Of a stretch of 64,000 nucleotides of DNA, positions 7,078 through 29,882 are shown one piece after another. The first letter of the stretch is position 1; each line of letters opens with the position of its first letter. The stretch covers positions 346,544-410,543 of the forward strand of contig JACPWO010000001.1 of the NCBI GenBank assembly GCA_016197005.1, given 5' to 3'. Under the pieces are notes generated by a model that did not search any database, had not been told where the DNA came from, and saw only the letters and a list, made by a program, of their open reading frames with translations. This DNA comes from Candidatus Anderseniibacteriota bacterium. Its GTDB lineage: Bacteria; Patescibacteriota; Andersenbacteria; UBA10190. The position numbers and the translations under genes are program-made.

Positions 7078-7084
7078 AGCTGCC

Positions 7085-8916: not shown

Positions 8917-8928
8917 ACAAAGTGCAGT

Positions 8929-12523: not shown

Positions 12524-12605
12524 ACGCCTAAAAATTGCATAGAATGCGGAATTTGGCAATATTGGCACACTATAAAAAACCTGATATAGTCCTCAGGATT
12601 ACCAT

Positions 12606-13076: not shown

Positions 13077-13106
13077 AGCAGAGTGGCACAGCAGCTTTAC
13101 TGAGAA

Positions 13107-13583: not shown

Positions 13584-13600
13584 AAGTGTGATAAAAAATA

Positions 13601-14011: not shown

Positions 14012-14020
14012 AGGTTATGG

Positions 14021-15427: not shown

Positions 15428-15456
15428 AGAGAACGATGATCGGTCGGCCTCTCGAA

Positions 15457-15735: not shown

Positions 15736-15742
15736 AATACTT

Positions 15743-16582
15743 TTACTTTACCGAATCTTCGGCTTCTATATACCTCATTTTAAGTTGGAATAATCCCAGG
15801 GCCATCAATAAATAAGCAAGTAGGTATATGTAGTCCCCATATCCACCGTTTTGCCATGTCTCATTGATAGTCTGGTATAAAAAGTTATAATCCGCCAAAT
15901 ATTGGACTACTAATGCTGCAAGAATAAAAAATATTCGAGGCCGCATGACTCCACCTAATGCTTTTTTTGATAGTAGGTAGGTCAAGATTGCAATTGATAC
16001 ATAAACCGCCTGCCCTAGAGGATAGCCAAAGTCAAAAAATATTCTGAATGGACTTGACCAATCAAATTCATAATTTCTTAAGAAAAAAATGTAAGAAAAA
16101 ATAAGCATTGCCAGCGGAATCAGCAAAGCCTGTATTTTATTCTTAAATGATCTTAAAGATACTGTGACGCCAGAGGCTCGAGCTAAAACAGCAATCCCAT
16201 AAATGTATAAGGGAATACTCCCAAAAAAACCAAGGTCTGCCAATGAAGGATACGGAATATCAACATTGAGTATGAGGTTATAGAAACTAAAAGTACTTTG
16301 CCCAAAAGTCTGCAGAAGAAGGCCTAGCGCAAAGGCTCCAATAGATCGACCCATGATACTCCGTAACCCTCCCCATGATCGAGCAATCAAAAGTCCCAAT
16401 ATACCCCCCAGAAAAGCAATAATTTGATAAGAAGCTGCCCAGATTAGATTTCTAAATTCACTCGTTTCTTCAAAGCCTATAATCTGCAATACTACCCACC
16501 ATATCGAAAGAACGACAAAGAGGAACAAGGCTACTTGAGCGGATCTATCTTTCATCAACAGCTGTCGTGCATTCTGCCACAT
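15743..16582 (-). CDS. Polytopic membrane protein (about 7-8 TM); paralog of 36505..37317
   Basis: Hydrophobic segments throughout. Conserved motifs WGG(L/V)...PYPS(L/V)ADLGF are shared with the paralog. No known family recognised. Confidence 0.55.
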   Translation of the reverse strand: MWQNARQLLMKDRSAQVALFLFVVLSIWWVVLQIIGFEETSEFRNLIWAASYQIIAFLGGILGLLIARSWGGLRSIMGRSIGAFALGLLLQTFGQSTFSFYNLILNVDIPYPSLADLGFFGSIPLYIYGIAVLARASGVTVSLRSFKNKIQALLIPLAMLIFSYIFFLRNYEFDWSSPFRIFFDFGYPLGQAVYVSIAILTYLLSKKALGGVMRPRIFFILAALVVQYLADYNFLYQTINETWQNGGYGDYIYLLAYLLMALGLFQLKMRYIEAEDSVK

Positions 16583-16604
16583 GTTTTCATACTAGCACAA
16601 AAGT

Positions 16605-17534
16605 CTATATTGAGGAAAAGGCACTGTCTTGGACGGTTAAAATGTATTTTTTTAAATACGCGCAAGGCTGATAGGACTCTTTGCATTTCTTTAGCCCAGG
16701 AATTCCTAGATCCTGTTCATAATTGAGAAATTCGCATTCTTGACTAAAGATTGCCTTGGCCGTCTCCTGCATAACATATGGGTAAATTCCGACATAAGAT
16801 ACTGTATCGGCTTTCTCGAAATGCAAAATTGCGTATCCGTTACCCACGATCTCATTAATTGAAAAACCGATTAAATTTTCGTTTGATAAGATGCCTACGG
16901 TAATGAATTGTGAGCATTGAGCAACGGTAAATACTCGAGATAGAGCAGCAAATTCATTCTCAATATCTTCATGGCTAAAGCTTTTATGTTTAGCCCACAA
17001 AAGAAACAAATCTTTGATTTTTTCCTGAACAATCTCGTCACTGAGATTAAGAATGTGAGTAGTGGATCGGTATTTTTTTTTAAAACGATTTACAAAGTTT
17101 CTTTTTGCTCCTAGTTTGTTTCCTTTGTACGTCATCAAATCAGGGACCGATAGAATATAATCAAAATTATTAGAATCCTCGCTGGTAATAATATCCCGAG
17201 AATTAATATTATGAATTGAATATTCTGGAAGCAGTTTCAATATTGGTGTGGCGCCTGTATTTTTTACCCAACGGAGCAATCTCCGTACCGTATTATCCGT
17301 TTCGTTGCTACCTAAAAAAGAATAAAATGGCTCACCAGTAATATAATCAGTGAATTTAATAACGAGACTGCCATTCAAAATTGAAACCTGGGCTTCATCT
17401 TTAGTATTCCAACTCCACAGACTGGTAAAGTTGTAATCAGAATAAGGTGGGTACTGCTTGGTGAAATTTTCGATGATAGGCTTATCGGTAATTTCGAGTT
17501 TCTTGAATCTTGGAAATTCAGGAATCATTGCCAT
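16605..17534 (-). CDS. DUF2156-like conserved hypothetical; paralog of 3353..4294
   Basis: FPRFKKLEITDKPIIENFTKQYPPYSDYNFTSLWSWNTKDE aligns with the 3353 copy along its whole length. Confidence 0.45.
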   Translation of the reverse strand: MAMIPEFPRFKKLEITDKPIIENFTKQYPPYSDYNFTSLWSWNTKDEAQVSILNGSLVIKFTDYITGEPFYSFLGSNETDNTVRRLLRWVKNTGATPILKLLPEYSIHNINSRDIITSEDSNNFDYILSVPDLMTYKGNKLGAKRNFVNRFKKKYRSTTHILNLSDEIVQEKIKDLFLLWAKHKSFSHEDIENEFAALSRVFTVAQCSQFITVGILSNENLIGFSINEIVGNGYAILHFEKADTVSYVGIYPYVMQETAKAIFSQECEFLNYEQDLGIPGLKKCKESYQPCAYLKKYILTVQDSAFSSI

Positions 17535-17631
17535 TAATTAAGGGTAACACTTAGGGCTACAGTCATAAACACATGTTATGAAAAAACCTGAGGGCTCGAA
17601 TGCGAACCGCTCAGGTTGACTCTCGCTTTGA

Positions 17632-17964
17632 TCATCCCGACTCCATGATCACAATGGCAACGATGGCCAAAATGATACCCGCCCACTTCTGAGCAGAAAT
17701 ATCCTCATGGAAGACAAGGTTGCTCACCGCAATAATGAAAATGCAGTTTGAGACTAAGAAAAGAATCACGCAGTGAGCCAGGGGACCCTTTTTTAACATG
17801 AGTAGAAAAAGGGTGAGGGCAACGATCCAAGACAGATAGCCGCCTCCGATCCACCACCACCTTCCTCCATGTTTCGCCCACTGATTCAGGAATGCATCAC
17901 CGATGCCTCCAATCAGCCCCGCCGAGATTGCCAGAAGGTAGAAAGCCCATCGGGGCATATCCAT
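17632..17964 (-). CDS. Small 4-TM membrane protein, SMR/EamA-like (DMT superfamily)
   Basis: 110 aa with four hydrophobic helices. Pattern resembles EmrE/ArnE-like small transporters. Confidence 0.5.
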   Translation of the reverse strand: MDMPRWAFYLLAISAGLIGGIGDAFLNQWAKHGGRWWWIGGGYLSWIVALTLFLLMLKKGPLAHCVILFLVSNCIFIIAVSNLVFHEDISAQKWAGIILAIVAIVIMESG

Positions 17965-18070
17965 GATAAATCTCCTCTGTTGGTGCCAAAGTAAAGGAAC
18001 GAACTGACTGCGTATAATACAGCAATATCATTTCCGTGTCAAATTTTGCTGGAAATTCTATCTGAAAAAA

Positions 18071-18430
18071 CTATCCACGATTTATAACTGTTGATTTAGC
18101 ATCCTGCGCTTGAAAATAAGCCTTGGAAAATTCTTCCGCTTTTTTAGCGTCGAAATCCTTACAGCTGAATATATCAATAAAAGCCCTGTTGCCTACCTCA
18201 TCTAAATGAACCGAAATAGAGGAGGTTTCAATAAATTGCATGGCTGAATATCCCTCAAGCTCTCCTTGACCAAATCTCTGCACATAGCATTCTCCTTGAG
18301 CAACCATATCAACTATGACAACAAGTTCGCTCACGAATTGTTTTAGCCCTTCAGAACTAATTAATTTATCATGCTCGCACCCGGCCAGATCAATGGCCAG
18401 GGACTTACCCCATGGCTTAGTTTTATCCAT
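18071..18430 (-). CDS. AdoMetDC-family (PF02675-like) pyruvoyl enzyme paralog, divergent active-site motif
   Basis: LAIDLAGCEHDKL...GYSAMQFIETSSISVHLDE...AFIDIFSCKDFD is collinear with SpeH (GRHVIAEFYGC...VTAVVLLAESHISIHTWPE...AAVDVFTCGD). ESH is replaced by ETS, and HTWPE by HLDE. Confidence 0.55.
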   Translation of the reverse strand: MDKTKPWGKSLAIDLAGCEHDKLISSEGLKQFVSELVVIVDMVAQGECYVQRFGQGELEGYSAMQFIETSSISVHLDEVGNRAFIDIFSCKDFDAKKAEEFSKAYFQAQDAKSTVINRG

Positions 18431-18479
18431 GTTTCTATTATACTAAAAGACTGGTTTAAAAACACGAGCAGTGAGCTTT

Positions 18480-18698
18480 TTACCGAAACACTTTAAATAT
18501 CTCAGCCAGCGATACATTAAGCGCTCGGGCAATCTTTTGGATATTTACAATCGATACGTTCTGCTCGCCCCGCTCGATTGATCCAATGTAGGTGCGATGA
18601 AGTTTTGACTTCATGCCCAAGCCCTCTTGCGATAGCCCCTGCTGTTCTCGTAGGTCGCGAATGCGCTGACCAAAGTAGTATCGAATATCCCTAGCCAT
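18480..18698 (-). CDS. XRE-family HTH transcriptional regulator
   Basis: LSQEGLGMKSKLHRTYIGSIERGEQNVSIVNIQKIARAL is a canonical HTH_3 motif. 72 aa. Confidence 0.75.
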   Translation of the reverse strand: MARDIRYYFGQRIRDLREQQGLSQEGLGMKSKLHRTYIGSIERGEQNVSIVNIQKIARALNVSLAEIFKVFR

Positions 18699-18716
18699 GC
18701 CCTAAATGCTGGCCGG

Positions 18717-18737
18717 CTGTAGTCAATAGTTCTACAG
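18717..18737. promoter_or_regulatory. Palindromic candidate operator CTGTAG-N9-CTACAG in the divergent promoter region
   Basis: ggCTGTAGtcaatagttCTACAGtcaataac has inverted hexamers with an internal TCAATA direct repeat. It lies between the start of the minus-strand XRE gene (18698) and the plus-strand gene at 18820. Confidence 0.3.
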
Positions 18738-18819
18738 TCAATAACTAGCGTTTTTACAGGGAAGCTGATACTGTGAGCTTACAAAAACGAGTTACCAACA
18801 GCTTCATTGAAGCACAACA

Positions 18820-19488
18820 GTGGGCTCAACCCGTCAAATAAAAGTGCTTAACCTTAATAATAATCATATGAACGAGAACAACGCTCAAAACCAACAACGC
18901 AAAAACTGGTTCGCCCGGCACAAAATTATGACGGGTATTATGGTAGTGATTATCTTCCTCATCGTGCTTGGCATGATTGGCGGTAGCGGTGATCAGTCAG
19001 GCAGCTCGACCTCTACTCAAAAGACAAGTTCGGGTGGTAGTGAGGCAGAGACAACCACCGCGACTGCTCCTGCGGCAACCGTGGCTAAGATCGGTGAGCC
19101 GGTGACTGATGGTGACCTGACCTTCACCGTCACGGGTGTCACCACGAAGCAAACTCTTGGCAACACATTCACCCAGCGTGATGCCCAAGGCACCTTCCAT
19201 GTAGTGATGCTCAAGATCGAGAACAAGGGCAAGGAAACAAAAACAACTGATAGCTCAATGTTCAAAATCGTGGACAGCCAAGGTAGAGAATTTGAACGGT
19301 CTATCGACGGGCAAACGGCTGTCGGGTTATCACAAGGAAAAGTTGATCTCTTCCTGCAGCAGATTCAGCCAGGACTCTCGGTCACCGGAGATATTGTCTT
19401 CGACCTCCCTGCCGATGCGACCGGTACACAGTTAATAGTCAAAGGCAGTCTCTTCAGCAAGGGAGCCAAGATTCTGCTGGAGCAATAG
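18820..19488 (+). CDS. DUF4352 domain protein, N-terminal TM anchor
   Basis: TM helix IMTGIMVVIIFLIVLGMIG, a Ser/Thr-rich linker, then LTFTVTGVTT...FHVVMLKIENKGKE...FKIVDSQGREFE...GDIVFDLP, typical of DUF4352. The true start is possibly the internal MNENNAQ. Confidence 0.6.
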   Translation: MGSTRQIKVLNLNNNHMNENNAQNQQRKNWFARHKIMTGIMVVIIFLIVLGMIGGSGDQSGSSTSTQKTSSGGSEAETTTATAPAATVAKIGEPVTDGDLTFTVTGVTTKQTLGNTFTQRDAQGTFHVVMLKIENKGKETKTTDSSMFKIVDSQGREFERSIDGQTAVGLSQGKVDLFLQQIQPGLSVTGDIVFDLPADATGTQLIVKGSLFSKGAKILLEQ

Positions 19489-19574
19489 GCTTGCTGAATC
19501 TTGGAGTTAAAATCCGCCTATGCCCGGGAGGGTACAGGTGGATTTGGGTGTGCCCAACGAAAGCGTTACTATGA

Positions 19575-20687
19575 GTGCATATGCCCGTCTTAAAAGAAAC
19601 AAAACGAAGCATGAAGAACACACCAAAGCGGTGGGCTGCCTCTGGGAATCAGAGATACTTGAGTGATCAGCAAAAAGAAGCATTGGGGCATGCAGTAAAT
19701 TTTCAGAACAAACTCTCCAGCATCTCAAACGCAGCTAATGTGTCCCTTACCAAACGGCAGGTTGATGTGGTTGTCCAAAGCCCAGCCTTACAAGTCGCTG
19801 TGCAGGTACAGGAAAATATCATTTCGATCCAGGATACGCATGATGCACTACTTGGTGGTTTTAGAGCTGTTGTACAAGTCAGCGAAGCTATCGGGCATGT
19901 CTTTAAGGCATACGAGCAGCAATTCAGCGCAATTGCCGAAGTCGCTAATAATATTGGCCGAACAGTAAAAACCGTGGGTGAGTGGCACAGCCAGGTTGTT
20001 GAGCGCGGAAACCTTCTGGGACATCAACTGCAGGTTGTGGGCGAGAATTTTAAATTAATCGCGGAGAGCATCTCCTTACAATCACCTAATACAAATCCCG
20101 AAATATACCCCGTGCGAGCTACATACCGAGAGGCTTCGGTCTCCGTTTGCCTCGAGCGGGACCAAGTGGAAGAAATAGCTGAACTCGCTGCACACTTGGT
20201 CTTAGGAAAACTGGAGGAGAAGCTTTTGTTATCCCTTAAGCCATTATCTGACCAGCCATCAATCGCGCCTGCGCTTGAAATAACAGCCCCATCACTAACG
20301 AGCACCGCCCTAACAGAAAAAAAGGGGGTTCAGTGGGGAGGGATTCTTATTGATCTTGACCATGCCACGTTGCAGTACAAAGAAAATCCCGCCATTGAAA
20401 TTGTGCCAAAAAATGCGGAAATAAAATGGCTGCTTTGTGTTCTTCGCAAAGAAGGAGAAGTGGCCGAGCATACTGAGATCGCCGTGGCCACCGGCATCAT
20501 TACTGATCAGCAGTCAGATAAAACCAATCAGGCCGTGGCACGACGAGTCCAGTTTATTAGAAAACGTGTTGTCCTTGTTTTAAAAAGTGCTGGTATGACA
20601 CCGGCAGAGATCAAGCAAATGCTCCTTTCTAAGCCTGGAATTGGCTATGCAGCAAGGAGTATTAATAATCACACCCATGCCGCATAA
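19575..20687 (+). CDS. Hypothetical protein (370 aa), GC-rich, island-encoded
   Basis: Long ORF with GC content matching the island. No recognisable motifs. It is followed by a strong rho-independent terminator. Confidence 0.4.
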   Translation: MHMPVLKETKRSMKNTPKRWAASGNQRYLSDQQKEALGHAVNFQNKLSSISNAANVSLTKRQVDVVVQSPALQVAVQVQENIISIQDTHDALLGGFRAVVQVSEAIGHVFKAYEQQFSAIAEVANNIGRTVKTVGEWHSQVVERGNLLGHQLQVVGENFKLIAESISLQSPNTNPEIYPVRATYREASVSVCLERDQVEEIAELAAHLVLGKLEEKLLLSLKPLSDQPSIAPALEITAPSLTSTALTEKKGVQWGGILIDLDHATLQYKENPAIEIVPKNAEIKWLLCVLRKEGEVAEHTEIAVATGIITDQQSDKTNQAVARRVQFIRKRVVLVLKSAGMTPAEIKQMLLSKPGIGYAARSINNHTHAA

Positions 20688-20715
20688 ATAGCCACACATA
20701 CGCCGTCGATCCCCT

Positions 20716-20752
20716 AAAACTGCTCCTCCATACTAGGAGCAGTTTTATTTTT
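20716..20752 (+). terminator. Rho-independent terminator
   Basis: aaaactgctcct-ccatact-aggagcagtttt followed by atttttaa: a 12-bp stem and 7-nt loop with a T-tract. Confidence 0.5.
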
Positions 20753-20764
20753 AATTACAAACCT

Positions 20765-22069
20765 ATGTCTAAAAAACGAAAGGCAGCAAAAAAGAAAAAC
20801 AAAAAGTTACAGGTGGTCTATGTTCCGATCGAGGAATTAAGGCCCGCCGACTATAACCCACGCAGGTGGGATGATGCGGCGATTGCGCAGCTACAAGAAA
20901 GCATTAAACGGTTTGGGGTGGTCGACCCCATAATCGTTAACTGCGCTCCCAACCGTCGCAATGTGGTAATCGGAGGCCACTTTAGGCTCAAGGTTGCTAA
21001 GGATCTTGGTATGACCGAGATCCCAGTGGTGTATGTCTACATTGCAAATATCGACATCGAAAAAGAGCTCAACCTGAGGTTAAACCGCAACACCGGCGCG
21101 TGGGATTTTAAACTACTCAAAAACTTTACCCTGGAGACTTTGCTCAATGTCGGCTTTGATGATACCGACCTCTCAAACATTTGGGACGATGTGTTGCAAA
21201 CCGAAGACGACGACTTCGATGTCGATAAGGCAGTCGCGGAAATTAAGACGCCCAAGACCAAACCGGGTGACATCTATCAAGTGGGCTCGCACACGGTAGG
21301 CTGTGGAGATTCTACTGACCCGACTTTCATTAAAAAAGTCATGGGAAAACTACAAGCCAGCATGGTGTACTGTGACCCTCCGTATAACATCGGGTTGGAT
21401 TACAACAATGGCCTCACCACGAAAGGAAAGTACCAGGGCCATAAAACTAAAGATCGTCTCACCAACAGTCAATACGCCACCTTGCTGTCTCAGACTATAG
21501 AAAACGCCTTGGCGGTATCTTACGACAATACACACGTCTTCTATTGGTGTGATGAGTCGTCAATCACCCTGATACAAAGTCTCTTCAATTATCATGACCT
21601 AAAGAATCGGCGGGTGTGTCTGTGGCTCAAGAATAACTTCAACATGACACCCCAGGTCGCCTTCAATAAAGTCTACGAGCCATGCATCTACGCCACCCGG
21701 GGAAAGCCATACCTCGCGCCTACAATCACCAACCTGAACGAGGTCATGAACAAAGAGGTTGGCACTGGCAACCGCCTAACTGATGATATCCTTGACCTCC
21801 TAAATATTTGGTTGGTAAACCGCGTAGCCGCGCAGGAGTACGAGCACCCGACCGAGAAGCCGCCGACCTTACACGAGAAGGCACTGCGCCGGTGCACGAA
21901 GCCTGGGGATGTCGTGCTCGATCTTTTCGGCGGCTCCGGCTCTACCCTCATTGCCTGCGAACAAATGAAACGACGGTGCGTCACGGTCGAACTCGAACCG
22001 GTGTTCTGCGATGTCATCATCAAGCGCTTTGAAGCCTTAACGAAAACCCATGCCAAAAAAATCAATTAA
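20765..22069 (+). CDS. ParB-like nuclease domain fused to a beta-class DNA (N6-adenine / N4-cytosine) methyltransferase
   Basis: N-terminal VVYVPIEELRPADYNPRRW...GVVDPIIVN is a ParB/Srx domain. The catalytic motif IV is VYCDPPYNIG. The AdoMet motif I, DLFGGSGSTLIACEQ, is near the C-terminus (order IV then I = beta class). Confidence 0.8.
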   Translation: MSKKRKAAKKKNKKLQVVYVPIEELRPADYNPRRWDDAAIAQLQESIKRFGVVDPIIVNCAPNRRNVVIGGHFRLKVAKDLGMTEIPVVYVYIANIDIEKELNLRLNRNTGAWDFKLLKNFTLETLLNVGFDDTDLSNIWDDVLQTEDDDFDVDKAVAEIKTPKTKPGDIYQVGSHTVGCGDSTDPTFIKKVMGKLQASMVYCDPPYNIGLDYNNGLTTKGKYQGHKTKDRLTNSQYATLLSQTIENALAVSYDNTHVFYWCDESSITLIQSLFNYHDLKNRRVCLWLKNNFNMTPQVAFNKVYEPCIYATRGKPYLAPTITNLNEVMNKEVGTGNRLTDDILDLLNIWLVNRVAAQEYEHPTEKPPTLHEKALRRCTKPGDVVLDLFGGSGSTLIACEQMKRRCVTVELEPVFCDVIIKRFEALTKTHAKKIN

Positions 22070-22811
22070 ATCTGGGGATGTTTTTCGGTTGGGTGCGCAC
22101 CTGTTGGGATGTGGCGATGCCCAGGATAAGGTCTTTGTAGATAGGCTGCTTGGTAAAGAAAAGATTAGCCTGGTACTTTGTGACCCGCCCTACGGCGTGG
22201 CGTATGTAGAAAATAAAAAAGGGTTTAATCCGAAGGGTAAAGAACACCGCGTCATCGTGAACGACCATGCACAAAGCGAGAGTGACTACCGGCATTTCAC
22301 ATACCAGTGGCTCGAAACAACCAAGACCCACCTTGCCCGCAAGAATTCACTCTACATTTTTAATTCGGACAAGATGCTCTTCGCCCTGCGCGACGGTATG
22401 CAAGATGCCGGAGTAAAGTTCGCGCAGTTATTGGTGTGGATTAAAAACCACGCCGTGGTCGGCCGGATGGACTATCTCCCCCAGCACGAATTGATTGCAT
22501 ATGGCTGGTATGGGACGCACGCTTTCCACAAAGCCAAGGATAAGAGCGTGCTGGTCTATCCGAAACCCAGCAAGAGCACGCTTCACCCGACCATGAAGCC
22601 AGTGGGGTTACTGCGTCGCCTCATTCTGAATAGCTCGAAGATTGGTGACGTAGTATACGACCCCTTTTTGGGATCAGGTAGCACGCTCCTGGCCTGTGAA
22701 CAGACGAAACGCGTCTGCTTTGGAATCGAGCTTGATCCGCACTACTGCCAAACCATCATGGATCGGTTTGAAAAACTCACGGGCATTACGCCCAAGAAAA
22801 TTAATCCTTAA
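22050..22811 (+). CDS. DNA methyltransferase, beta class (DPPY)
   Basis: VLCDPPYGVAY (motif IV) precedes DPFLGSGSTLLACEQ (motif I). It overlaps the upstream MTase by 20 nt. Confidence 0.8.
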   Translation: MPKKSIKSGDVFRLGAHLLGCGDAQDKVFVDRLLGKEKISLVLCDPPYGVAYVENKKGFNPKGKEHRVIVNDHAQSESDYRHFTYQWLETTKTHLARKNSLYIFNSDKMLFALRDGMQDAGVKFAQLLVWIKNHAVVGRMDYLPQHELIAYGWYGTHAFHKAKDKSVLVYPKPSKSTLHPTMKPVGLLRRLILNSSKIGDVVYDPFLGSGSTLLACEQTKRVCFGIELDPHYCQTIMDRFEKLTGITPKKINP

Positions 22812-22820
22812 AGCATCTGT

Positions 22821-23291
22821 ATGGAAAAGGTAGTCAGTAAAAACAAACAGGAGAAGCCGCCGGGCGCGGTCGAAGTCCGGCAGTCGAAACAAAAAGAAAT
22901 GTTCATCGAGCAGCTTAAGAAAACGCCTATCGTTCAGGTAGTGTGTGAGAAAATCGGCATCACTCGCACGACCTACTACCGGTGGCACAAAGCTGATCGG
23001 GAGTTCGCCGAAGCAGCGGACATGGCCTTGGCTGACGGATCGGGGTTGGTCAATGATTTAGCTGAAAGCCAGCTCATGACCGCTATCCGAGACGGCAACC
23101 TAACAGCCATCATTTTCTGGCTCAAGAATCATCACCGAGCGTATGCCAATCGCGTCGAGCTGTCGTTGCAACAACCGGTGAGCGAGCAACTCACGCCCGA
23201 GCAAGAAGCCGTAGTCAAAAAAGCCTTGGCTCTCGCCTCCCTCACGGAGCCGGAGCAAGAATCTAATTCTTCATCACAAAACCATGAGTAA
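22821..23291 (+). CDS. Putative terminase small subunit / HTH DNA-binding protein
   Basis: GITRTTYYRWHKADREF is an HTH. 156 aa. It lies immediately upstream of the large-terminase gene and overlaps it by 8 nt. Confidence 0.5.
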   Translation: MEKVVSKNKQEKPPGAVEVRQSKQKEMFIEQLKKTPIVQVVCEKIGITRTTYYRWHKADREFAEAADMALADGSGLVNDLAESQLMTAIRDGNLTAIIFWLKNHHRAYANRVELSLQQPVSEQLTPEQEAVVKKALALASLTEPEQESNSSSQNHE

Positions 23292-24750
23292 TAACATTTC
23301 AGACCCTGAAGTCATTCAGGAATTAATGAGTGACCGTACGGCTCGCTTGGCGAGTGCGCGGCAAAGTCACTACCTGTTCTTTCATCTCTATGAGGCTCGG
23401 TACGTCAAACACAAGACGGCGGAGTTCCAAAAGAACCTCTTCCGCATTACCGAGGACCAGAGCATCAAGCATGCGGCTATCGTCGCGTTTCGCGGATCAG
23501 CCAAGTCAACCATCATGACCTTATCGTACCCACTGTGGGCCGTGTTAGGAATTCAGCAAAAGAAATTTGTCTTACTGCTGAGCCAAACCCAAAATCAGGC
23601 ACGTTCTATGCTCATGAACCTGAAGCGAGAAATTGAGACCAATGACCTGCTGCGGGCAGACTTTGGTGCCCTCGAGTACCAAACGGACGAGTGGGGTCGC
23701 GATTCATTGGTCATTAAAAAGCACGGGGCTCGGATTATGGCTGCGTCTACAGAGACCAGTATTCGTGGACTGCGTCACGGAGAGCATCGCCCCGACCTTA
23801 TCATTGCCGACGACGTTGAGGATCAGAACTCTGTTAAGACACGCGAGGGACGCAACAAAACGTATAGCTGGCTCATGGGTGAAGTTATTCCGGCTGGCGA
23901 TGAGGGCACCAGGCTCATCGTGATTGGAAACCTACTCCATGAAGACTCCCTCTTAATGCGTCTCAAACATGATATTGCCGAGGAGAATCTCGACGGCATT
24001 TTCTGTTGGTACCCCTTGGTGGATAGCACTGGCAAAAGCCTGTGGTCAGGGAAGTACCCTGACCAGGCCAGTATCGACCGGCTTCATAAGAAGGTACCCA
24101 GCCGCGTTGATTGGGAGCGGGAGTATATGTTGAAAATTATCGCTACCCAAGAACAGGTCGTGCATCCTTCATGGATTCAGCCGTATAAGGAAATTCCAGT
24201 GGATACCCGACATTATCGGTATACCGCCATTGGTGTTGATTTGGCCATCTCCAAAAGTGATACGGCTGATTTTACCGCTATGGTGGCTGCTAAAGTGTAT
24301 GGCTCAGGTGAAGATATGCGGGTGTACATCTTGCCCCATCCGGTCAATGAGCGGCTGACGTTTCCGGAGCAAGTTGATCGTACCCGACTGTATTCGGATA
24401 CACTCGATAAGGCCTGGCTGTTTATTGAAGAGGTGGGCTACCAAAGCGCCTTAATCCAAGAACTCAAACAGCGGGGTTATACAGCCGAAGGAGTCAAGAC
24501 GCATGGGGCAGACAAGCGGTCGCGCTTGGCGATCGTCACCCACCTAATCCAAAACGGCCAGGTGTTATTCCCCGAGCATGGCTGCGAGGCCCTTATTCAA
24601 CAGCTGGTGGGCTTTGGAGTAGAGAGTCACGATGACCTGGCTGATGCCTTCGCGATCTTGATGCTGAAAGTGATGGAGAAAAATAACTTTAGTACCGGCA
24701 TGACTATCATCTGGTCGGGCGGGAGCGACTGGCTGCATCAAAACTTTTAA
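23284..24750 (+). CDS. Phage terminase large subunit (ATPase plus RNaseH-like nuclease)
   Basis: Walker A-like AIVAFRGSAKST and Walker B LIIADDVED. The C-terminal nuclease region has TAIGVDLAISKSD...HDDLADAF acidic residues. Confidence 0.75.
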   Translation: MSNNISDPEVIQELMSDRTARLASARQSHYLFFHLYEARYVKHKTAEFQKNLFRITEDQSIKHAAIVAFRGSAKSTIMTLSYPLWAVLGIQQKKFVLLLSQTQNQARSMLMNLKREIETNDLLRADFGALEYQTDEWGRDSLVIKKHGARIMAASTETSIRGLRHGEHRPDLIIADDVEDQNSVKTREGRNKTYSWLMGEVIPAGDEGTRLIVIGNLLHEDSLLMRLKHDIAEENLDGIFCWYPLVDSTGKSLWSGKYPDQASIDRLHKKVPSRVDWEREYMLKIIATQEQVVHPSWIQPYKEIPVDTRHYRYTAIGVDLAISKSDTADFTAMVAAKVYGSGEDMRVYILPHPVNERLTFPEQVDRTRLYSDTLDKAWLFIEEVGYQSALIQELKQRGYTAEGVKTHGADKRSRLAIVTHLIQNGQVLFPEHGCEALIQQLVGFGVESHDDLADAFAILMLKVMEKNNFSTGMTIIWSGGSDWLHQNF

Positions 24751-24883
24751 CCCCACTCCCTTTCCTTACACTCTGTGGCCTAATATGCGGCTTTGAGTTA
24801 CCTACAGCTTAGGCGACTTACCAACTGGATATGTGCACAAGGCAGCGGCACTGTGTCCTTACTAAGTCATATAACTAAGAGCC

Positions 24884-26164
24884 ATGCCCCCTACTCAATA
24901 TTGCCTCTACGCCCGGAAGTCCTCCGAGGACGATGAACGACAAGCCTTATCCATCGACTCGCAGATCAAAGAAATGGTGGCCGTCGCGCAACGTGAGAAT
25001 ATTGAGATCGCCGAAATTCGCAGAGAAAGTCATTCGGCCAAGGCTTCGGGGCAACGGCCGGTCTTCAATCAACTGCTCGGCGACATACGCGGCGGCATGT
25101 TCAGCGGCATCGTGGCCTGGGCACCTGACAGGTTGAGTAGGAATGCCGGGGATTTAGGAAGCTTGGTTGATCTGATGGATAGCAAGCACCTGGAAGAAAT
25201 TCGCACCCATGGACAAAAGTTCAGCAACTCACCGAATGAAAAGTTCCTGCTGATGATCTTGTGCAGCCAGGCCAAGCTCGAGAATGACAACCGAGGTATC
25301 AATGTTAAGCGAGGCCTCAAAAACAAAGCCGAGATGGGCGTGCGACCGGGAGTGGCACCACTGGGATATCTGAATGAACGGAGTCCCGATCGTAACAAGG
25401 GGAAAATAATTATCGACCCGATGCGAGCAACGATTATCAAGAACATGTTTCAGCATGTATCTGACTACGGAGCTAGCGGTAGGACACTCCTAAAATGGTT
25501 GAATAGCGAGGCTGGGTTTACTACCCGCAGCGGTAAGCGACTGACGCTGGGCGGCGTCTACAGAACATTACACAATGAGTTCTACTACGGCAGATTTGAG
25601 TACGGCGGGAAGTGGTATGACGGCACCCATGAGCCGCTCATAACTAAAGAGCTATTCGACGAGGTTCAGGAGCAACTAAAAACGGCACCTAAATCCCGAC
25701 CCGGCACGAAAGAGTTCGACTTCACCAAAATGATCCTCTGCGGAGGGTGTGGGTATGGCATTACGGCTGAGGAGAAATTTAAAAAGCGCCGGGATGGTTC
25801 GATCAAGAAGTATGTCTACTACCACTGCTCACGGTTCGACTACACGTGCAAGCAACCCTATGTCCGCGAGGACTTACTTCTCTCTCAGCTATTAACCCTG
25901 ATTGATCGGGTAGACTTAAGCCAGGTGGGAATCAAGAAAAAGTTGGAAGCTGAGATAGAGCGGCTACAAAAGTTCAGTGTTGGTATCCTCGGACATCGGC
26001 AATCAATAGTAGCGCCGAAAGTGGATACAAAAACGTATGCGAAATATGTCCTGCAGGAAGGTGGACGAGAAGAAAAACGAGAACTGCTCGGGTGCCTCAA
26101 GAGCAAACTCTATCTCAAAGATGAAATCTTAACCTTGAGTGAATCGGTAACGGAAAAAGTTTAG
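24884..26164 (+). CDS. Large serine recombinase (integrase)
   Basis: N-terminal catalytic region YCLYARKSSEDDERQALSIDSQ (Ser nucleophile). It also has a recombinase domain and a C-terminal Cys cluster CGGCGY...HC. 426 aa. Confidence 0.8.
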   Translation: MPPTQYCLYARKSSEDDERQALSIDSQIKEMVAVAQRENIEIAEIRRESHSAKASGQRPVFNQLLGDIRGGMFSGIVAWAPDRLSRNAGDLGSLVDLMDSKHLEEIRTHGQKFSNSPNEKFLLMILCSQAKLENDNRGINVKRGLKNKAEMGVRPGVAPLGYLNERSPDRNKGKIIIDPMRATIIKNMFQHVSDYGASGRTLLKWLNSEAGFTTRSGKRLTLGGVYRTLHNEFYYGRFEYGGKWYDGTHEPLITKELFDEVQEQLKTAPKSRPGTKEFDFTKMILCGGCGYGITAEEKFKKRRDGSIKKYVYYHCSRFDYTCKQPYVREDLLLSQLLTLIDRVDLSQVGIKKKLEAEIERLQKFSVGILGHRQSIVAPKVDTKTYAKYVLQEGGREEKRELLGCLKSKLYLKDEILTLSESVTEKV

Positions 26165-26185
26165 TCGGAGGTAATAATTTTTACC

Positions 26186-27085
26186 TTATATCTTTACCAA
26201 TTCCTCCCCCTGCACTTTATGCTGGGTGAAAAAGCGAAAGGTATCTGGTGACAGCGAATTAGTGGCTAAAGGATTATGAACTAAAATACAGTCCTCACCT
26301 AAACGCTTGGGGTGACGCAGAACAAACTCTTTAGAATAGATGACGGCACTAATGCCGGCATGAGCTGTATTACCAAAGAAATTCATTGGCACTGATCCGC
26401 CCTGCTTTTTTACTAATGAAATTCTCTGCGAGTAGTGAGAGTAAGGACTTCCAACGGTCTCACCTTTTTCCGGGGAAAAATCCATCGACAATGTGAGATG
26501 TCCTAAGCCAAAAAGACATTTGAATATTAATGGTAAATCCGTATCGGGGTAGTCAAAATTTCCGCGGTTAACCGCGATGATAAAAATGTCTTTCGGAGCA
26601 ACAATCCCTTTACTGAGATATTCCTGATATTTTATGAATTTCTCCTTTAAGGCGGCAGAGAGACGTAAGACCATTTCGTCTTCTGGCACCGAGTGAAGAC
26701 CTTCAGTTTGTACATTGGGCACCCTATCCGGGCCCGTTCCCTGGGCTGGAGCGATACATTCGATCCAGATAGTCTGGCCGTTTTTAAAAATCTTAATGTC
26801 TGGCCCCTTATTGCTCGAAGAAATTTGTATTCCATTGGCAATGAAAACGCAAGCGAGATACATCTCCCAAGTCCGTTGATGAAAATTCTTCTTAACCTGT
26901 CTCAAGAAATGACGATCTGCATAAGGCTCATAAGTTTTGTATAGCTCTTCAAATCGTTGCTTCCGGTCAGGAATTGATCCGCTGGCAATGTAATACTCGT
27001 CGTAAGCTGAATACTGAGCCTTCAAGACATTCAGCTCTTTATCACTTCGTACGGTTGGAAAGTTATCAGTGAACAGGGTCGTCAT
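26186..27085 (-). CDS. Hypothetical protein, island cargo
   Basis: 299-aa ORF with no recognisable motif. It sits between the integrase and the tRNAs. Confidence 0.4.
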   Translation of the reverse strand: MTTLFTDNFPTVRSDKELNVLKAQYSAYDEYYIASGSIPDRKQRFEELYKTYEPYADRHFLRQVKKNFHQRTWEMYLACVFIANGIQISSSNKGPDIKIFKNGQTIWIECIAPAQGTGPDRVPNVQTEGLHSVPEDEMVLRLSAALKEKFIKYQEYLSKGIVAPKDIFIIAVNRGNFDYPDTDLPLIFKCLFGLGHLTLSMDFSPEKGETVGSPYSHYSQRISLVKKQGGSVPMNFFGNTAHAGISAVIYSKEFVLRHPKRLGEDCILVHNPLATNSLSPDTFRFFTQHKVQGEELVKI

Positions 27086-27097
27086 GAGTAGCTCAAA

Positions 27098-27925
27098 TTA
27101 TTTCGGGGACAACGTCTGAGCTCTCTTGAACCTTTCACTGCCCATCATTTCTGCCTTGAGTTTTTTGTTTTGTGCCTCTAGATCTTTGAATCTAGGCAGG
27201 AAGTCGTCAACAAATTGAATTGCGTGGTACTTCTTATTGACCCCATAAAACAGGTCAAGAAGTCCCATCGCTATATTTGCTCCATACCATAAATGGCCTT
27301 TCACGTGATGATCATCTTCGAAATCAAAGAAGGGAGTGTGAAATTTTCCCTCTCTCAATAAAAACTTGAAATGCTGGAAGGCATACGCAAGATTGGCGTG
27401 GGCAAAAGATTTGTTAATCAGTTTTTTCGTTGTTTTGAGCGCATCTGATCCTGCCTTAAATTCTTGATCGAGCCACGCATCGCGTGCTTTCTGAAGTCTA
27501 TCTGGTATTTCAATCACACCGTCTTTATCTTCACAAAACCTGGCCTTCTCTTTAAAAGCCAGAGCGTAAGCTGCCCATGCCCCAGCTTCAACTACTTGGC
27601 GTAAATCCATTCCGGCTTGAACGCTATGTAATCGGACAGTGGAGAGTAAAGCAAGAGTATGATGTTTTTTAACCGACGAGAGGTATGCCATAAACATGAA
27701 TTTCTCCGGATCATCAACCGATTTTACAAAGTTGTTTAGTAGTGTATTGAATGCAGAGGCATGGGCAAAATATTCCCCGTATCGGTCACCTGCTGTTAGG
27801 AACATCTGTCGTTCACTATCGATGATGTCACCCATTGTTTTCTGTTTAAAATCCATATGAGGTTTTGAGAAAAAATAGCTAAATAGCTTGGATAATAGGG
27901 ATGAGATTCGAACAAAGAATAACAT
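27098..27925 (-). CDS. Hypothetical protein, island cargo
   Basis: 275-aa ORF. It forms a tight two-gene unit with 26186..27085 (12 bp spacer). No family recognised. Confidence 0.4.
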   Translation of the reverse strand: MLFFVRISSLLSKLFSYFFSKPHMDFKQKTMGDIIDSERQMFLTAGDRYGEYFAHASAFNTLLNNFVKSVDDPEKFMFMAYLSSVKKHHTLALLSTVRLHSVQAGMDLRQVVEAGAWAAYALAFKEKARFCEDKDGVIEIPDRLQKARDAWLDQEFKAGSDALKTTKKLINKSFAHANLAYAFQHFKFLLREGKFHTPFFDFEDDHHVKGHLWYGANIAMGLLDLFYGVNKKYHAIQFVDDFLPRFKDLEAQNKKLKAEMMGSERFKRAQTLSPK

Positions 27926-27960
27926 AAGAGGGTGGGTCGTTTAGACCCAAAACTATCGGG

Positions 27961-28047
27961 CGGACAGGGTGGGATTCGAACCCACGGAACCCTTTCGGGC
28001 TCAACACATTAGCAGTGTGCTGCTTTCGACCGCTCAGCCACCTGTCC
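27961..28047 (-). tRNA. tRNA-Ser (anticodon GCT), long variable arm
   Basis: Reverse complement GGACAGGTGGCTGAGCGGTCGAAAGCAGCACACTGCTAATGTGTTGAGCCCGAAAGGGTTCCGTGGGTTCGAATCCCACCCTGTCCG folds as a cloverleaf. Acceptor is GGACAGG/CCTGTCC, the T-loop is GGTTCGAATCC, and the anticodon loop is CTGCTAA. Confidence 0.85.
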
Positions 28048-28196
28048 CGTAGCTTGTTTCTACCTTATTACTGTCTATGCTTCAAGCGAGCGAGTACTAT
28101 TCACAGTAGTTGCCGATTCAACTTTACCTTCAAGGCGCTTCTTCATAAGACGGGTTGATAGAAGATGTAATTTCTGGTAAAACAGGCAAATAGTTC

Positions 28197-28269
28197 GCGC
28201 CCATAGCTCAGCTGGTAGAGCACCTGACTCTTAATCAGGTTGTCCCAGGTTCGATCCCTGGTGGGCGCA
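28197..28269 (+). tRNA. tRNA-Lys (anticodon CTT)
   Basis: GCGCCCATAGCTCAGCTGGTAGAGCACCTGACTCTTAATCAGGTTGTCCCAGGTTCGATCCCTGGTGGGCGCA. Acceptor is GCGCCCA/TGGGCGC and the anticodon loop is CTCTTAA. Confidence 0.9.
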
Positions 28270-28316
28270 CATCAAAAAAATTGAAGAAGGCGTAAAATTG
28301 TGCTAATATGTAATAT

Positions 28317-29882
28317 ATGACGCGATGGAAACTTCCGTCTTTTTTGATCCTCTTCCTTCTACTTCCAGTTGTTGCAGAGGCTGCTCTTATTGATCAAGTA
28401 AATCAAGCTTTCCGCTCTGTATACGGCCGCACCCCGACTACTACCGAATGGCAGTACTGGGCGGGTAGAGTTCAAAATAAAGAAAAAACGACTTACGACG
28501 CGCTCGTGGGCGCTATGTCGTATCAAAAAGGGTCGACGGGAACCGCGGCAACTGTTACCGTTGCCCCCTCCTCTATTGCTGCCTCCAGTGTGTTTAAAAC
28601 GAGTCGCTCAGCTTATCCATCCTCTCATAACCCCAACTTTCTTCCTGAGGGAACACTTGTAAAATCTGCGAGTAAACCCCAAGTATTTTATATTCAAAAT
28701 GGCAATAAAAGTTGGGTGCTCTCAAGCATTCTTGATCGTTGGCTCGGTGAAAACCATTACTATAAACACGACATCATCCTTACCATCTCGGACGCAGACT
28801 TAGCACGGTACACGCAAACAAAGTCGGTAAACCCTATATACATCGGGAAAATCCTTCAACACCCCGCCGGCACACAGTATTTTATAGACGACAAATTGCG
28901 CAAACGAGAAATCTCTCCAAGTGTACGTGCCGCCTTTAAAATTCCCGCCGGTAACTTGTACCCAACATCAAGCGCACACTTAAGTGAATTCCCTACCGGT
29001 CCCGCTATTACGAAGGCAGACAAATATCCTGGTGGCATGATTGTATACACCGGACCCTACCACGGTGGGCGTTTCTGGAAGATAGAAGAGGTTGAAGCCG
29101 GCAAACTTATCAAGCGTCTTTACCTTACCGACTACATCTACGAAGCAGATGCTAACCCTGACGAAAGTCATCGCGCTCCCGCAATAGATGCTATCTTGGC
29201 TCGGCATGAACGCGGCCCAAATATCGAGAGATATCCGGACGGCTGGACAGCTAGTCTGGATGGGAAAATATTCGTTGTTGAAAACGGGAGCCTGAGACAC
29301 GTCGGCTCTCCGGAGATCCTCGCAGCGATGGGGCACAATCCCAAAAATGCACTTTCGGTCTTCCCTGAATTCCTACGAAAATATCCTCGCGGTTATGCCA
29401 TTACCGCCTTCAAAAGTATTGTAGGCAATACGAGTGGTTCCGTTGGCCCAGCTGCTGCGCCAAACACCTCTGTAAACCTCACGAAAGTCCGCCCCGCCAT
29501 TCGCGCTATCATCGGGGACATGAATAACATCTACTACAGCGTATTCGACAAAGACGTAACGGCTGCAGAGAACAAGTTCTGGGTGGACTATATATACAAC
29601 GGTGAAGTGGCAACAAAAGTTGATCTCGTTGCCGCAATGAAGCGCACGAAGACAACTGGCATAAAGCCTGCTCGCACTTCCCGTACCGCCACCTTGTCGG
29701 AATCGAGACTTGAATCTCATTGGTTCCCTTACTTGTTCTACTTCGTTCATCAGAAAGAGGCTTCACAAGAAGATAAAAACTATTGGTATGGCCGAATTCA
29801 AGCTGGTGACCGCGATACAATCGAAGAACTTGGTGGCACTATCCAGTGGATTAAAGACAACTTCGGCGCAACTCGCAAGTAA
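28317..29882 (+). CDS. Secreted hypothetical protein (521 aa) with signal peptide
   Basis: N-terminal MTRWKLPSFLILFLLLPVVAEAA is a signal peptide. No recognised catalytic motif. Confidence 0.5.
   Translation: MTRWKLPSFLILFLLLPVVAEAALIDQVNQAFRSVYGRTPTTTEWQYWAGRVQNKEKTTYDALVGAMSYQKGSTGTAATVTVAPSSIAASSVFKTSRSAYPSSHNPNFLPEGTLVKSASKPQVFYIQNGNKSWVLSSILDRWLGENHYYKHDIILTISDADLARYTQTKSVNPIYIGKILQHPAGTQYFIDDKLRKREISPSVRAAFKIPAGNLYPTSSAHLSEFPTGPAITKADKYPGGMIVYTGPYHGGRFWKIEEVEAGKLIKRLYLTDYIYEADANPDESHRAPAIDAILARHERGPNIERYPDGWTASLDGKIFVVENGSLRHVGSPEILAAMGHNPKNALSVFPEFLRKYPRGYAITAFKSIVGNTSGSVGPAAAPNTSVNLTKVRPAIRAIIGDMNNIYYSVFDKDVTAAENKFWVDYIYNGEVATKVDLVAAMKRTKTTGIKPARTSRTATLSESRLESHWFPYLFYFVHQKEASQEDKNYWYGRIQAGDRDTIEELGGTIQWIKDNFGATRK

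Follow-up and report, generated by a model that had tools for sequence, protein, structure and literature searches.

A predicted PD-(D/E)xK nuclease gene and a gene of an orphan all-helical family in a tRNA-Ser(gct)/integrase hotspot of a Candidatus Andersenbacteria genome

PD-T7-1 and PD-T7-5 are described as single-gene systems. Both are tabulated as PD(D/E)XK nuclease systems in the literature (PMC10952713), and Vassallo et al. 2022 (PMC9519451) report PD-T7-1 as a validated anti-phage system of E. coli and state that most putative DNases of this type gave direct immunity and were judged unlikely to be restriction-modification (R-M) enzymes. Precedents for genes embedded within type I R-M systems are PrrC in EcoprrI and TgvAB in V. 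cholerae VPI-2, and guilt-by-embedding is a framework that predicts embedded defence genes from type I R-M operons (Payne et al. 2024, bioRxiv 10.1101/2024.01.29.577857). In the integrase-proximal or tRNA-proximal defence hotspots of prophages, satellites and genomic islands, such as the P2/P4 hotspots (PMC13586616), a variable set of genes lies between the integrase and the tRNA junction.

The stretch of DNA analysed in this study (64,000 nucleotides, hereafter the window) comes from a Candidatus Andersenbacteria (CPR) genome and contains two adjacent minus-strand genes, designated A and B, that are flanked by a large serine recombinase on one side and by tRNA-Ser(gct) and tRNA-Lys(ctt) on the other. 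The coordinates are given in Table 1. A preliminary description of the region had reported two minus-strand ORFs of 299 and 275 residues, 12 bp apart, between a serine integrase and a tRNA and with a GC content below that of the island; strand, spacing, position and composition are all as it described, and the 275-residue ORF exists but the protein that it encodes almost certainly has 252 residues, as discussed below. In our preferred interpretation, to which we assign a probability of roughly 0.55, A and B are two unrelated, autonomous single-gene modules of defence type that are stacked and co-transcribed in a variable tRNA-Ser(gct)/integrase hotspot.

Table 1. Features of the locus in window coordinates (L001, L129 and L137 are homologous loci in related genomes)
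Feature	Position	Strand	Length or content	Basis
Island core	20765-24750	+	ParB-N6/N4 methyltransferase, N6/N4 methyltransferase, small-terminase-like HTH protein, large terminase	Pfam
Large serine recombinase, integrase of adjacent island	24884-26164	+	426 aa	Pfam Resolvase, Recombinase, Zn_ribbon_recom
Junction, recombinase stop to A stop (convergent genes)	26165-26185		21 nt	
Gene A	26186-27085	-	299 aa	ORF list
B-A spacer	27086-27097	-	12 nt	Sequence
Gene B, corrected start (almost certain)	27098-27856	-	252 aa	Homologue starts
Gene B, ORF as first called	27098-27925	-	275 aa	ORF list
Upstream in-frame extension of B	27857-27925	-	23 codons; most likely non-coding leader	
Leader, tRNA-Ser 3' end to B start	27857-27958	-		Near-identical in L129
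tRNA-Ser(gct), 3' end toward gene B; landmark of integration and hotspot	27959-28047	-		ARAGORN and Rfam
tRNA-Lys(ctt), syntenic partner of tRNA-Ser(gct)	28197-28270	+		ARAGORN/Rfam; synteny in L001 and L137

Gene A matches the PADLOC models for PD-T7-1 (PDLC04073, E = 2.1e-16) and PD-T7-5 (PDLC04110, E = 1.8e-15) as well as PHROG 8571 (E = 1.7e-25), and four further members of its family match the PD-T7-1 and PD-T7-5 models, with E values over the whole set of 1e-12 to 1e-23. The alignments cover profile positions 141–353 of 452 in PD-T7-1 and 44–234 of 346 in PD-T7-5, which is 47–55% of the models and not their full-length architecture. Because the core domain is matched and not the whole protein, A is a relative within the superfamily and a member of neither PD-T7-1 nor PD-T7-5. 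The residues predicted to be catalytic are E74, P95-D96, E109 and K149/K152, together with R71 and N173; no member of the set varies among 32 CPR sequences or in distant homologues from plasmids. E74 is located in a helix, P95-D96 in a strand, E109 in the next strand, and K149 and K152 in the helix that follows, an arrangement that places the acidic and lysine residues on the α-β-β-β-α-β core characteristic of PD-(D/E)xK nucleases, with the lysine outside the classical ExK position. The AlphaFold2 model of A (pLDDT 93) has an N-terminal helical region and a β-rich C-terminal region of its own. When this model is compared with the PDB using Foldseek, the named top matches are PD-(D/E)xK nucleases, at weak scores (best E = 0.055); a sequence-profile search of the PDB gives no match, nor does a tblastn search of cultured phage genomes. 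The family has hundreds of homologues with no conserved partner gene across loci, indicating genomic autonomy, and A itself is under strong purifying selection (dN/dS 0.066 against L129, a relative with 82% nucleotide identity). Gene A thus is a predicted PD-(D/E)xK nuclease of the PD-T7-1/PD-T7-5 superfamily. It resembles PD-T7-1 and PD-T7-5 in its nuclease core and enzyme class, in having no conserved partner gene, and in the occurrence of its family in defence-island and mobile-element contexts. It differs from them in the absence of the N- and C-terminal regions of the models and in its CPR host. Homologues of A on enterobacterial plasmids (E. coli and Providencia) retain the catalytic residues. 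These plasmid proteins were considered as bona fide PD-T7-1 or PD-T7-5 and rejected, since the E. coli protein has no PADLOC match and the Providencia protein matches only PD-T7-5, at 2e-05.

The homologues of B have about 252 residues and all begin M-[DE]-F-K-Q, and the database gene call is also of 252 residues. The 23-codon (69-nt) extension is missing from all homologues, and its equivalent in L129 has 70 nt and is out of frame; this comparison makes the Met at 27856 the almost certain true start of B. The leader between the tRNA and B contains two small hairpins, GGGUC-UAAAC-GACCC and AGCU-AUUU-AGCU, the latter followed by a U-run, and has a folding z-score of -2.6; an Rfam scan of the locus matches the two tRNAs and nothing else, so that the leader has no family there. 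Purifying selection on B is as strong as that on A (dN/dS 0.061 against L129), and its family comprises 677 representative clusters at E ≤ 1e-3 with a patchy distribution that includes CPR, DPANN, Proteobacteria, Binataceae and Lentisphaerae. For the purposes of this analysis, B is the founding example of the family. The AlphaFold2 model is helical (pLDDT 91.9). Nine polar residues, E15, R75, H77, Q80, R86, E90, K144, H153 and D178, are invariant and N155 is nearly so, a cluster that appears enzyme-like. Two members of the family are larger, P0243 with a four-transmembrane N-terminal region and P0249 with 150 additional residues at its C terminus; neither protein has a Pfam domain or is related to A.

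Scans of B against Pfam, NCBIfam and PADLOC v2.0.0 give no match, and in PHROG there is a single non-significant one (phrog_20294, E = 0.14). When 32 members of the family were scanned at E ≤ 10, only scattered chance matches were found. Foldseek comparisons with the PDB and BFVD yield no significant fold match, and tblastn finds no match in cultured phage genomes. A profile match in the PDB to aldehyde decarbonylase, a ferritin-like di-iron oxidase (E = 1e-3), was rejected because it covers one helix motif around E90 and because the ExxH iron ligands of the target align with residues that vary in B. The best, non-significant Foldseek matches include Csm6 and the sacsin HEPN domain (probability 0.3–0.44), and genes of this RNase class, which includes Abi-type HEPN proteins, are found in slots like that of B. 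However, B has no invariant Rx4-6H motif, none of the 32 members has a Pfam or PADLOC HEPN match at E ≤ 10, and the TM-scores are 0.33 or lower, so that assignment as a HEPN RNase was also rejected. The preliminary description had recognized no family for either protein, which is still true of B but not of A. It had proposed searches with PADLOC and with Foldseek on predicted structures: the first identifies A and returns nothing for B, and the second gives weak nuclease matches for A and no significant ones for B. Since there is no homology or structural link to characterised proteins, the proposed role of B rests on its genomic context.

Two slots recur in both families. In the first, homologues are nested co-directionally in complete type I systems, at the hsdM/hsdS or the hsdS/hsdR junction: the order is HsdM-[B]-HsdS-HsdR in L003/6/8/12/27 and L124 and HsdM-[A]-HsdS in L062/67/72/94/99/101, among others. 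Hsd genes are present within three genes of A in 18 of 80 A loci, a count that, like the other locus counts given here, overstates the number of independent events because the metagenomic loci are partly redundant (e.g. L045-47, L060/61, L099/101). In this nesting the homologues resemble PrrC and TgvAB, but embedding is a property of the families and not of the window copies, which are outside any R-M system. No sequence relation of A or B to PrrC or GmrSD was detected. A search for type I R-M or Hsd genes in the window found none, which rules out a role for these copies as guardians of an R-M system. The second slot has a tRNA on one side and, on the other, the 3' end of a large serine recombinase of the same family as that in the window, with which B or A is arranged tail-to-tail (L005/9/20/26/34 and L086/46/47; the B-recombinase gaps in the first group are -29 to 13 bp). 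Nine B loci have a serine recombinase no more than about four genes away, and 13 of the 43 loci of the B set contain cluster 3; in about 70% of B loci there is no recombinase close by. A co-oriented tRNA is found no more than 450 bp upstream of B in 6 of 43 loci, as compared with roughly 1% expected. An EcoRI-type methylase and GmrSD adjoin both families, an AbiEii/AbiGii toxin gene adjoins a B homologue on a Caulobacter plasmid, and a HEPN gene directly follows B in L137. In most B loci (about 60%), no defence or mobile gene could be recognised at a distance of up to two genes, and the neighbours of B are often housekeeping genes (HAD hydrolases, CTP synthase, ribosomal proteins, AlaX).

The arrangement in the window is best seen in relation to its relatives. 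Homology with L129 stops exactly at the stop codon of A (26186), and the intrinsic terminator of L129 is replaced by the sequence at 26165-26185, a recombination breakpoint. The order in L129 is tRNA-Ser, B, A, the terminator and then a different gene, whereas in the more distant but syntenic L137 it is tRNA-Ser(gct), B and the HEPN gene; the L137 contig ends about 600 bp beyond B and a recombinase could lie further out. The same tRNA-Ser(gct) thus precedes B in both, and in L001 a serine recombinase adjoins it. The position of B beside the tRNA is also conserved in L133 and L134, short contigs that contain no recombinase. The gene that occupies the hotspot varies between relatives, being A, the HEPN gene, an AlaX-like gene, or a 153-aa ORF followed by a methylase, GmrSD and DUF2130, and these different genes at one place support the hotspot proposed in the preliminary description. 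The terminase/methyltransferase module of the island core recurs in L005 and L125, and the tRNA-B-recombinase architecture recurs in other genomes. A search for direct and inverted repeats (att sites) in 17000-28400 found short, chance-level repeats only.

The GC content of the A/B pair is 0.42–0.43 as compared with 0.497 for the island (19575-26164) and its GC3 is 0.41–0.44 as compared with 0.59–0.62 for the island core genes; among the 1740-bp windows of the whole stretch, the pair lies at the 32nd percentile in GC and is unremarkable. Composition and breakpoint set A and B apart from the terminase/integrase core. The defence cargo that had been suggested stands in one part, the defence-type associations of both genes, and is uncertain in the other, that A and B are cargo of the serine-integrase island: the recurrent tRNA-B-recombinase architecture speaks for this, and the host-like GC3 and the end of L129 homology at the A stop speak against it. 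The locus is like the P2/P4 hotspots in its variable genes between integrase and tRNA junction and unlike them in that the integrase is the large serine recombinase of a CPR terminase/methylase island and that A and B may lie outside the element.

Among the alternatives, the one that survives best, although it is still unlikely, is that A and B are ordinary accessory or housekeeping genes that play no part in conflict, their genomic context simply reflecting a location in a recombination hotspot. The many housekeeping neighbours of B, the host-like codon composition of both genes and the stable position of B by tRNA-Ser within the lineage are consistent with this. It is countered by the homology of A to validated defence nucleases, by the precise co-directional embedding at the hsdM/hsdS junction that both families show, and by their patchy distribution across phyla.

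It is less probable that A is the endonuclease of an R-M system in which the methylase is a neighbouring methyltransferase, namely the ParB-methyltransferase or the N6/N4 methyltransferase in the window and HsdM or an EcoRI-type enzyme elsewhere. DNA methyltransferases very often adjoin A homologues (N6_N4_Mtase in L125, EcoRI_methylase in L075/83/103/112 and HsdM in many loci), and the two in the window are about 3.4–5.4 kb from A. However, the family of the adjacent methylase differs between loci and many A loci are without any; where A lies in a type I operon, the methylase there is already explained by the complete HsdMSR. The methyltransferases of the window have an island-type GC3 of 0.60 as compared with 0.44 for A, and L129 carries A without them. 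The judgement of Vassallo et al. (PMC9519451) that such nucleases are unlikely to be R-M enzymes points in the same direction.

The preliminary description had treated A and B as a two-gene unit, and one functional system, either a toxin-antitoxin pair or a sensor with a nuclease effector, has to be considered. The genes share a strand and a common conserved leader, and no terminator-like site was found in the spacer of 12 nt (9 nt in L129), which makes their co-transcription likely. Purifying selection is equally strong on both, and L129 retains B-A as an operon with a single downstream terminator, leaving room for cooperation specific to this lineage. Beyond these close relatives the families do not occur together: A is present in 0 of 43 B-homologue loci and B in 0 of 80 A-homologue loci, and the two are found side by side only in the genome of the window and in L129. 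A is missing from the loci of the nearest homologues of B (79%, 78% and 64% identity), and B from that of an A homologue at 61% identity. Type I R-M operons hold each family alone, and the PD-T7-1 and PD-T7-5 relatives have been described as acting singly. Neither co-occurrence nor adjacency is conserved, and the missing co-occurrence largely refutes a two-gene system, which we consider very improbable; the toxin-antitoxin reading found no support.

Least probable is that B, perhaps together with A, works for the mobile element and not for host defence, for instance as a recombination directionality factor or another accessory protein of its large serine integrase, because the tail-to-tail position of B in L005/9/20/26/34, the recombinases near other B genes and a length of about 250 residues, which some serine-integrase directionality factors share, are outweighed by the majority of B loci with no recombinase nearby, by the presence of B in recombinase-free type I R-M operons, beside the Abi toxin gene on a plasmid and by the tRNA in L133 and L134, and by the same positional pattern in A, an unrelated nuclease, which suggests that the integrase is linked to the slot and not to the protein.

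With A and B regarded as separate modules of a shared hotspot, A would be a metal-dependent nuclease homologous to the PD-T7-1/PD-T7-5 core that needs no cognate methylase and cuts the nucleic acid of invaders, whether directly or once activated by infection. B may be an independent effector or sensor directed against phages or mobile elements, possibly a second-line module like the genes embedded in R-M systems. The defence function of both genes at this locus is inferred from these relationships, as are any activity of B and, for A, its substrate and what triggers it. A more specific proposal for B, which we put forward tentatively and at less than even odds, is that it represents a new single-gene family of anti-phage or anti-plasmid defence, widespread in CPR bacteria and in archaea of the DPANN group, with sporadic occurrences among Proteobacteria, a fold that has no significant Foldseek match in the PDB or BFVD and a new catalytic constellation formed by the nine invariant residues, and interchangeable with nuclease effectors at the position between hsdM and hsdS.

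The genomes of CPR bacteria (Patescibacteria) are tiny and contain few recognised defence systems beyond R-M, and their immune repertoire is consequently poorly known. The present results fit an established pattern of embedded and hotspot candidates, of which hundreds have been predicted already, and for this reason they are useful but unsurprising. A is an ordinary new addition to a known kind of nuclease and B a modestly interesting candidate for defence. The locus is also a caution that tightly spaced, adjacent genes in a hotspot need not form one system. For the CPR, it indicates that these genomes commonly carry a relative of the PD-T7-1 and PD-T7-5 nucleases of E. coli and that an unannotated family of 252-residue proteins uses exactly the same genomic slots as the relatives of A. 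Should B prove to be a defence gene, the known repertoire would gain a family that is missed by current tools (PADLOC v2.0.0) and for which a confidently predicted structure could be used in studies of mechanism.

The two adjoining minus-strand ORFs between the large serine recombinase and the tRNA genes, gene A and gene B, are best explained as autonomous defence-type modules of one gene each that lie stacked and are transcribed together, a reading to which we assign a probability of about 0.55. The sequence comes from a MAG of Candidatus Andersenbacteria (CPR/Patescibacteria). The spacer between A and B is 12 nt, and the recombinase lies to the left of A, convergent with it and 21 nt away. 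The preliminary description of this arrangement was correct in its coordinates and in the length of A, but B is almost certainly 252 rather than 275 residues long, with its start at 27856. This start was placed from the motif M-[DE]-F-K-Q, which begins every B homologue at the corresponding position, from the 252-aa database gene call of a protein identical to B, and from L129, a relative keeping both genes, in which the extension upstream of 27856 is out of frame. A and B are real genes, each with homologues in the hundreds and with dN/dS against L129 (82% nucleotide identity) of 0.066 for A and 0.061 for B.

Features of the locus and the adjacent island (window coordinates)
Feature	Position	Strand	Description
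Island	18820-26164		left of A
ParB-methyltransferase and second methyltransferase genes	20765-22811		both N6_N4_Mtase family
Large serine recombinase	24884-26164	+	426 aa; domains Resolvase, Recombinase, Zn_ribbon_recom
Gene A	26186-27085	-	299 aa, ORF
Gene B, longest ORF	27098-27925	-	275 aa
Leader	27857-27958	-	about 100 nt, tRNA-Ser 3' end to B start
tRNA-Ser(gct)	27959-28047	-	right of B
tRNA-Lys(ctt)	28197-28270	+	right of tRNA-Ser(gct)

The leader is near-identical in L129 despite saturated synonymous sites (dS>1) and its predicted fold has small hairpins (z = -2.6), one of which is followed by a U-run immediately ahead of the start codon of B. The leader may serve as terminator of the tRNA or have a regulatory role for B-A; an Rfam search of it gave no family match.

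The GC content of A and B (0.42-0.43) is below that of the island (0.497), as had been noted, and the difference is sharper at GC3, which is 0.41-0.44 in A and B, 0.59-0.62 in island core genes and 0.35-0.48 in chromosomal genes on both flanks; the composition of A and B looks host-like, unlike the island. Over the whole window, GC is 0.38-0.43 in positions 1-19000, clearly below positions 19000-64000 (mostly 0.43-0.51, with a dip to 0.38-0.40 near 39-44 kb), so that the island region divides two compositionally different chromosome stretches. The match between L129 and the window runs from inside tRNA-Ser (27986) exactly to the A stop codon (26186) and then ends, a terminator and a Methyltransf_23/DUF268 gene taking the place of the integrase. 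In L137, which is more distantly related and shares synteny with the window's right flank (VanW, NUDIX, Ddl, tRNA-Lys, tRNA-Ser(gct)), B comes next and then a HEPN gene, and in L001, from another Andersenbacteria genome, a serine recombinase directly adjoins this tRNA-Ser(gct)/tRNA-Lys pair, no cargo lying between them, and B adjoins tRNA-Ser(gga) instead. These loci and the host-like GC3 speak for A and B being separable from the island. The order tRNA, B, recombinase nevertheless recurs in unrelated genomes, and in L125 an A homologue lies beside the same methylase/terminase module, which speaks for an association with such elements; the earlier assignment of A and B to the island as cargo is uncertain. 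Whether they lie in or out, the tRNA-integrase segment is a variable hotspot, as proposed previously, and carries different genes in different relatives. No att repeats were found around the island and A/B, which is the expectation for serine integrases.

The island (GC3 about 0.60) encodes a DUF4352 protein, a 370-aa unknown protein, the ParB-methyltransferase, a second N6/N4 methyltransferase, a small-terminase-like HTH protein, a large terminase and the recombinase. Apart from the terminase genes, no genes for capsid, tail or replication could be recognised, and the island is possibly a satellite-like element or a degraded prophage of a sort typical of CPR bacteria; its module of methylase, TerS, TerL (and recombinase) is present again in L005 and L125, from other CPR genomes. 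The two methyltransferase genes overlap by 20 nt and have short repeats in common (direct repeat family D2, at 21845, 22584 and 23194). L001 has a different large serine recombinase (37-45% identity over aligned segments). The L001 sites are at about 300-1960 and 1794-2169 (window counterpart 27959-28270), and the recombinase ORF, by our own call, appears to enter the tRNA gene; because the NCBI protein list of the contig lacks a recombinase gene, it may be a pseudogene. The position beside the tRNA-Ser(gct)/tRNA-Lys(ctt) pair suggests that this tRNA is a recurrent serine-integrase target in this clade.

For comparison, 43 genome loci with B homologues and 80 metagenome loci with A homologues were fetched with flanks of up to 8 kb, every ORF was searched with profiles of both families, and neighbours in all 123 loci were clustered and the recurrent clusters annotated. 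This shows that A and B fill the same kinds of slot. The first is the hsdM/hsdS junction in type I R-M operons that are complete and co-directional, with the orders HsdM-[B]-HsdS-HsdR(-YgjP) (L003, L006, L008, L012, L027, L124) and HsdM-[A]-HsdS (L062, L067, L072, L094, L099, L101); A is also found as HsdR-HsdM-[A] or HsdS-[A]-HsdR. Hsd genes lie within three genes in 18/80 A loci and 6/43 B loci. The second slot is tail-to-tail with a large serine recombinase: a tRNA, B and then directly recombinase(-) in L005, L009 and L026 (tRNA-Gln(ctg), tRNA-Gln(ttg), tRNA-Asp), of which L005 shares the window's methylase, small-terminase, terminase and recombinase module; B with tRNA-Ser(cga) about 2.5 kb upstream in L020 and without a tRNA in L034; and A then recombinase(-) in L086, L046 and L047. 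Six of the 43 B loci have a tRNA of the same orientation that ends no more than 450 bp upstream of B, against roughly 1% by chance as estimated from tRNA density.

An EcoRI-type methylase and GmrSD-HNH cassette recurs beside both families, and other recurrent neighbours are DUF4145, HNH, GIY-YIG, OLD-like ATPase/TOPRIM and Fic; an AbiEii/AbiGii toxin gene adjoins a plasmid copy of B. Guilt-by-embedding, which rests on nesting inside multi-gene defence operons, has given seven validated systems and 145 further predictions (bioRxiv 10.1101/2024.01.29.577857). PrrC and TgvAB are experimental precedents of genes inside type I R-M loci, and the A and B families nest likewise. That A and B are accessory genes without a conflict role would agree with their host-like composition, but is unlikely given this nesting. 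The two-gene cassette (EcoRI-type adenine methylase, type IV restriction-like GmrSD_N-HNH) occurs in L001, where DUF2130 follows it, L075, L083, L103 and L112. In several type I operons (L087/L073/L074/L091) a 220-aa DUF4145 gene separates HsdM from A. An HNH_5 protein (372-388 aa) directly precedes A in L045-L047 and B in L024, which has a C5 cytosine methylase close by as well.

Neither protein had been placed in a recognisable family, which does not hold for A: it matches PADLOC PD-T7-1 (E=2.1e-16) and PD-T7-5 (1.8e-15) and PHROG 8571 (1.7e-25), and four further family members match the two PADLOC models at 1e-12 to 1e-23. These matches, with the type I R-M operons, bear out the defence flavour proposed earlier. 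The coverage is of the central core only (47-55%), so that A is a superfamily relative with a common nuclease core and not a full-length member of either. The confident AlphaFold model of A (pLDDT 93) has PD-(D/E)xK nucleases as its leading identifiable Foldseek PDB matches, all weak (best E 0.055), including the DdmD nuclease domain, FokI, Hjc, HincII, CdiA-CT, Bax1, Cdn1 and LmuA. R71, E74, P95-D96, E109, K149, K152 and N173 are invariant in 32 CPR sequences and likewise in plasmid-borne homologues from E. coli and Providencia that are very distant; this set is of the PD-(D/E)xK type, with the lysine predicted to come from the following helix. PD-T7-1 is reported to be a validated E. coli defence system from a functional selection (PMC9519451), and a published table lists it and PD-T7-5 as PD(D/E)XK nuclease systems, its entries describing no mechanism (PMC10952713). 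By analogy with this class, A would cleave invading nucleic acid in a Mg2+-dependent manner at the predicted E74/D96/E109/K149 site, without a cognate methylase. An R-M endonuclease partnered by the neighbouring methylases is improbable; in their account of the selection, Vassallo et al. attribute direct immunity to most such putative DNases and regard them as unlikely R-M enzymes (PMC9519451). The JGI label "type I restriction enzyme S subunit" on the A-family proteins P0125, P0138, P0168 and P0237 is probably a misannotation carried over from neighbouring hsdS; a Pfam scan found no Methylase_S domain in A.

A true two-gene system, as envisaged in the preliminary description, would fit L129, where A and B are 9 nt apart with a strong intrinsic terminator after them, suggesting a small A/B operon in this lineage. 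The profile searches make it very improbable: an A homologue was absent from 43/43 B loci and a B homologue from 80/80 A loci. The closest B homologues outside the window's genome (79% identity, in another Andersenbacteria; 78%; 64%) have no adjoining A, and an A homologue at 61% identity has no B. Both genes together were found at just two loci, L128, which is of the window's own genome and 100% identical, and L129 (B 88%, A 85%). A and B are stacked, independently distributed genes and not a conserved two-component system.

B has no match in Pfam, NCBIfam or any PADLOC v2.0.0 model, and only a non-significant one in PHROG (E=0.14); 32 aligned members scanned at E<=10 gave no consistent weak match. 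When 1.84 billion cluster representatives were searched with a profile of its family, 677 clusters reached E<=1e-3. The hosts include many CPR lineages, DPANN archaea, Alpha-, Beta- and Gammaproteobacteria, Binataceae and Lentisphaerae, with a further copy on one Caulobacter plasmid, a patchy spread typical of mobile accessory genes. E15, R75, H77, Q80, R86, E90, K144, H153 and D178 are invariant and N155 nearly so, a pattern that suggests an enzyme or a specific ligand-binding site. Extra regions are fused to the B-family members P0243 (498 aa), P0249 (396 aa, with an unannotated C-terminal 150 aa) and P0255 (334 aa); the N-terminal region of P0243, about 245 aa, has four hydrophobic, membrane-helix-like segments, a hint that the B domain can couple to a membrane module. 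That B is an integrase accessory factor or RDF, in keeping with its place beside recombinases, is the least probable reading, B also occupying R-M operons. As an autonomous module, B would from its context be an independent effector or sensor, able to replace a nuclease in the same slots and perhaps serving as a second-line module like those embedded in R-M operons. A is an addition to an already known kind of nuclease, and B is reasonably regarded as an uncharacterised family and a candidate new defence gene.
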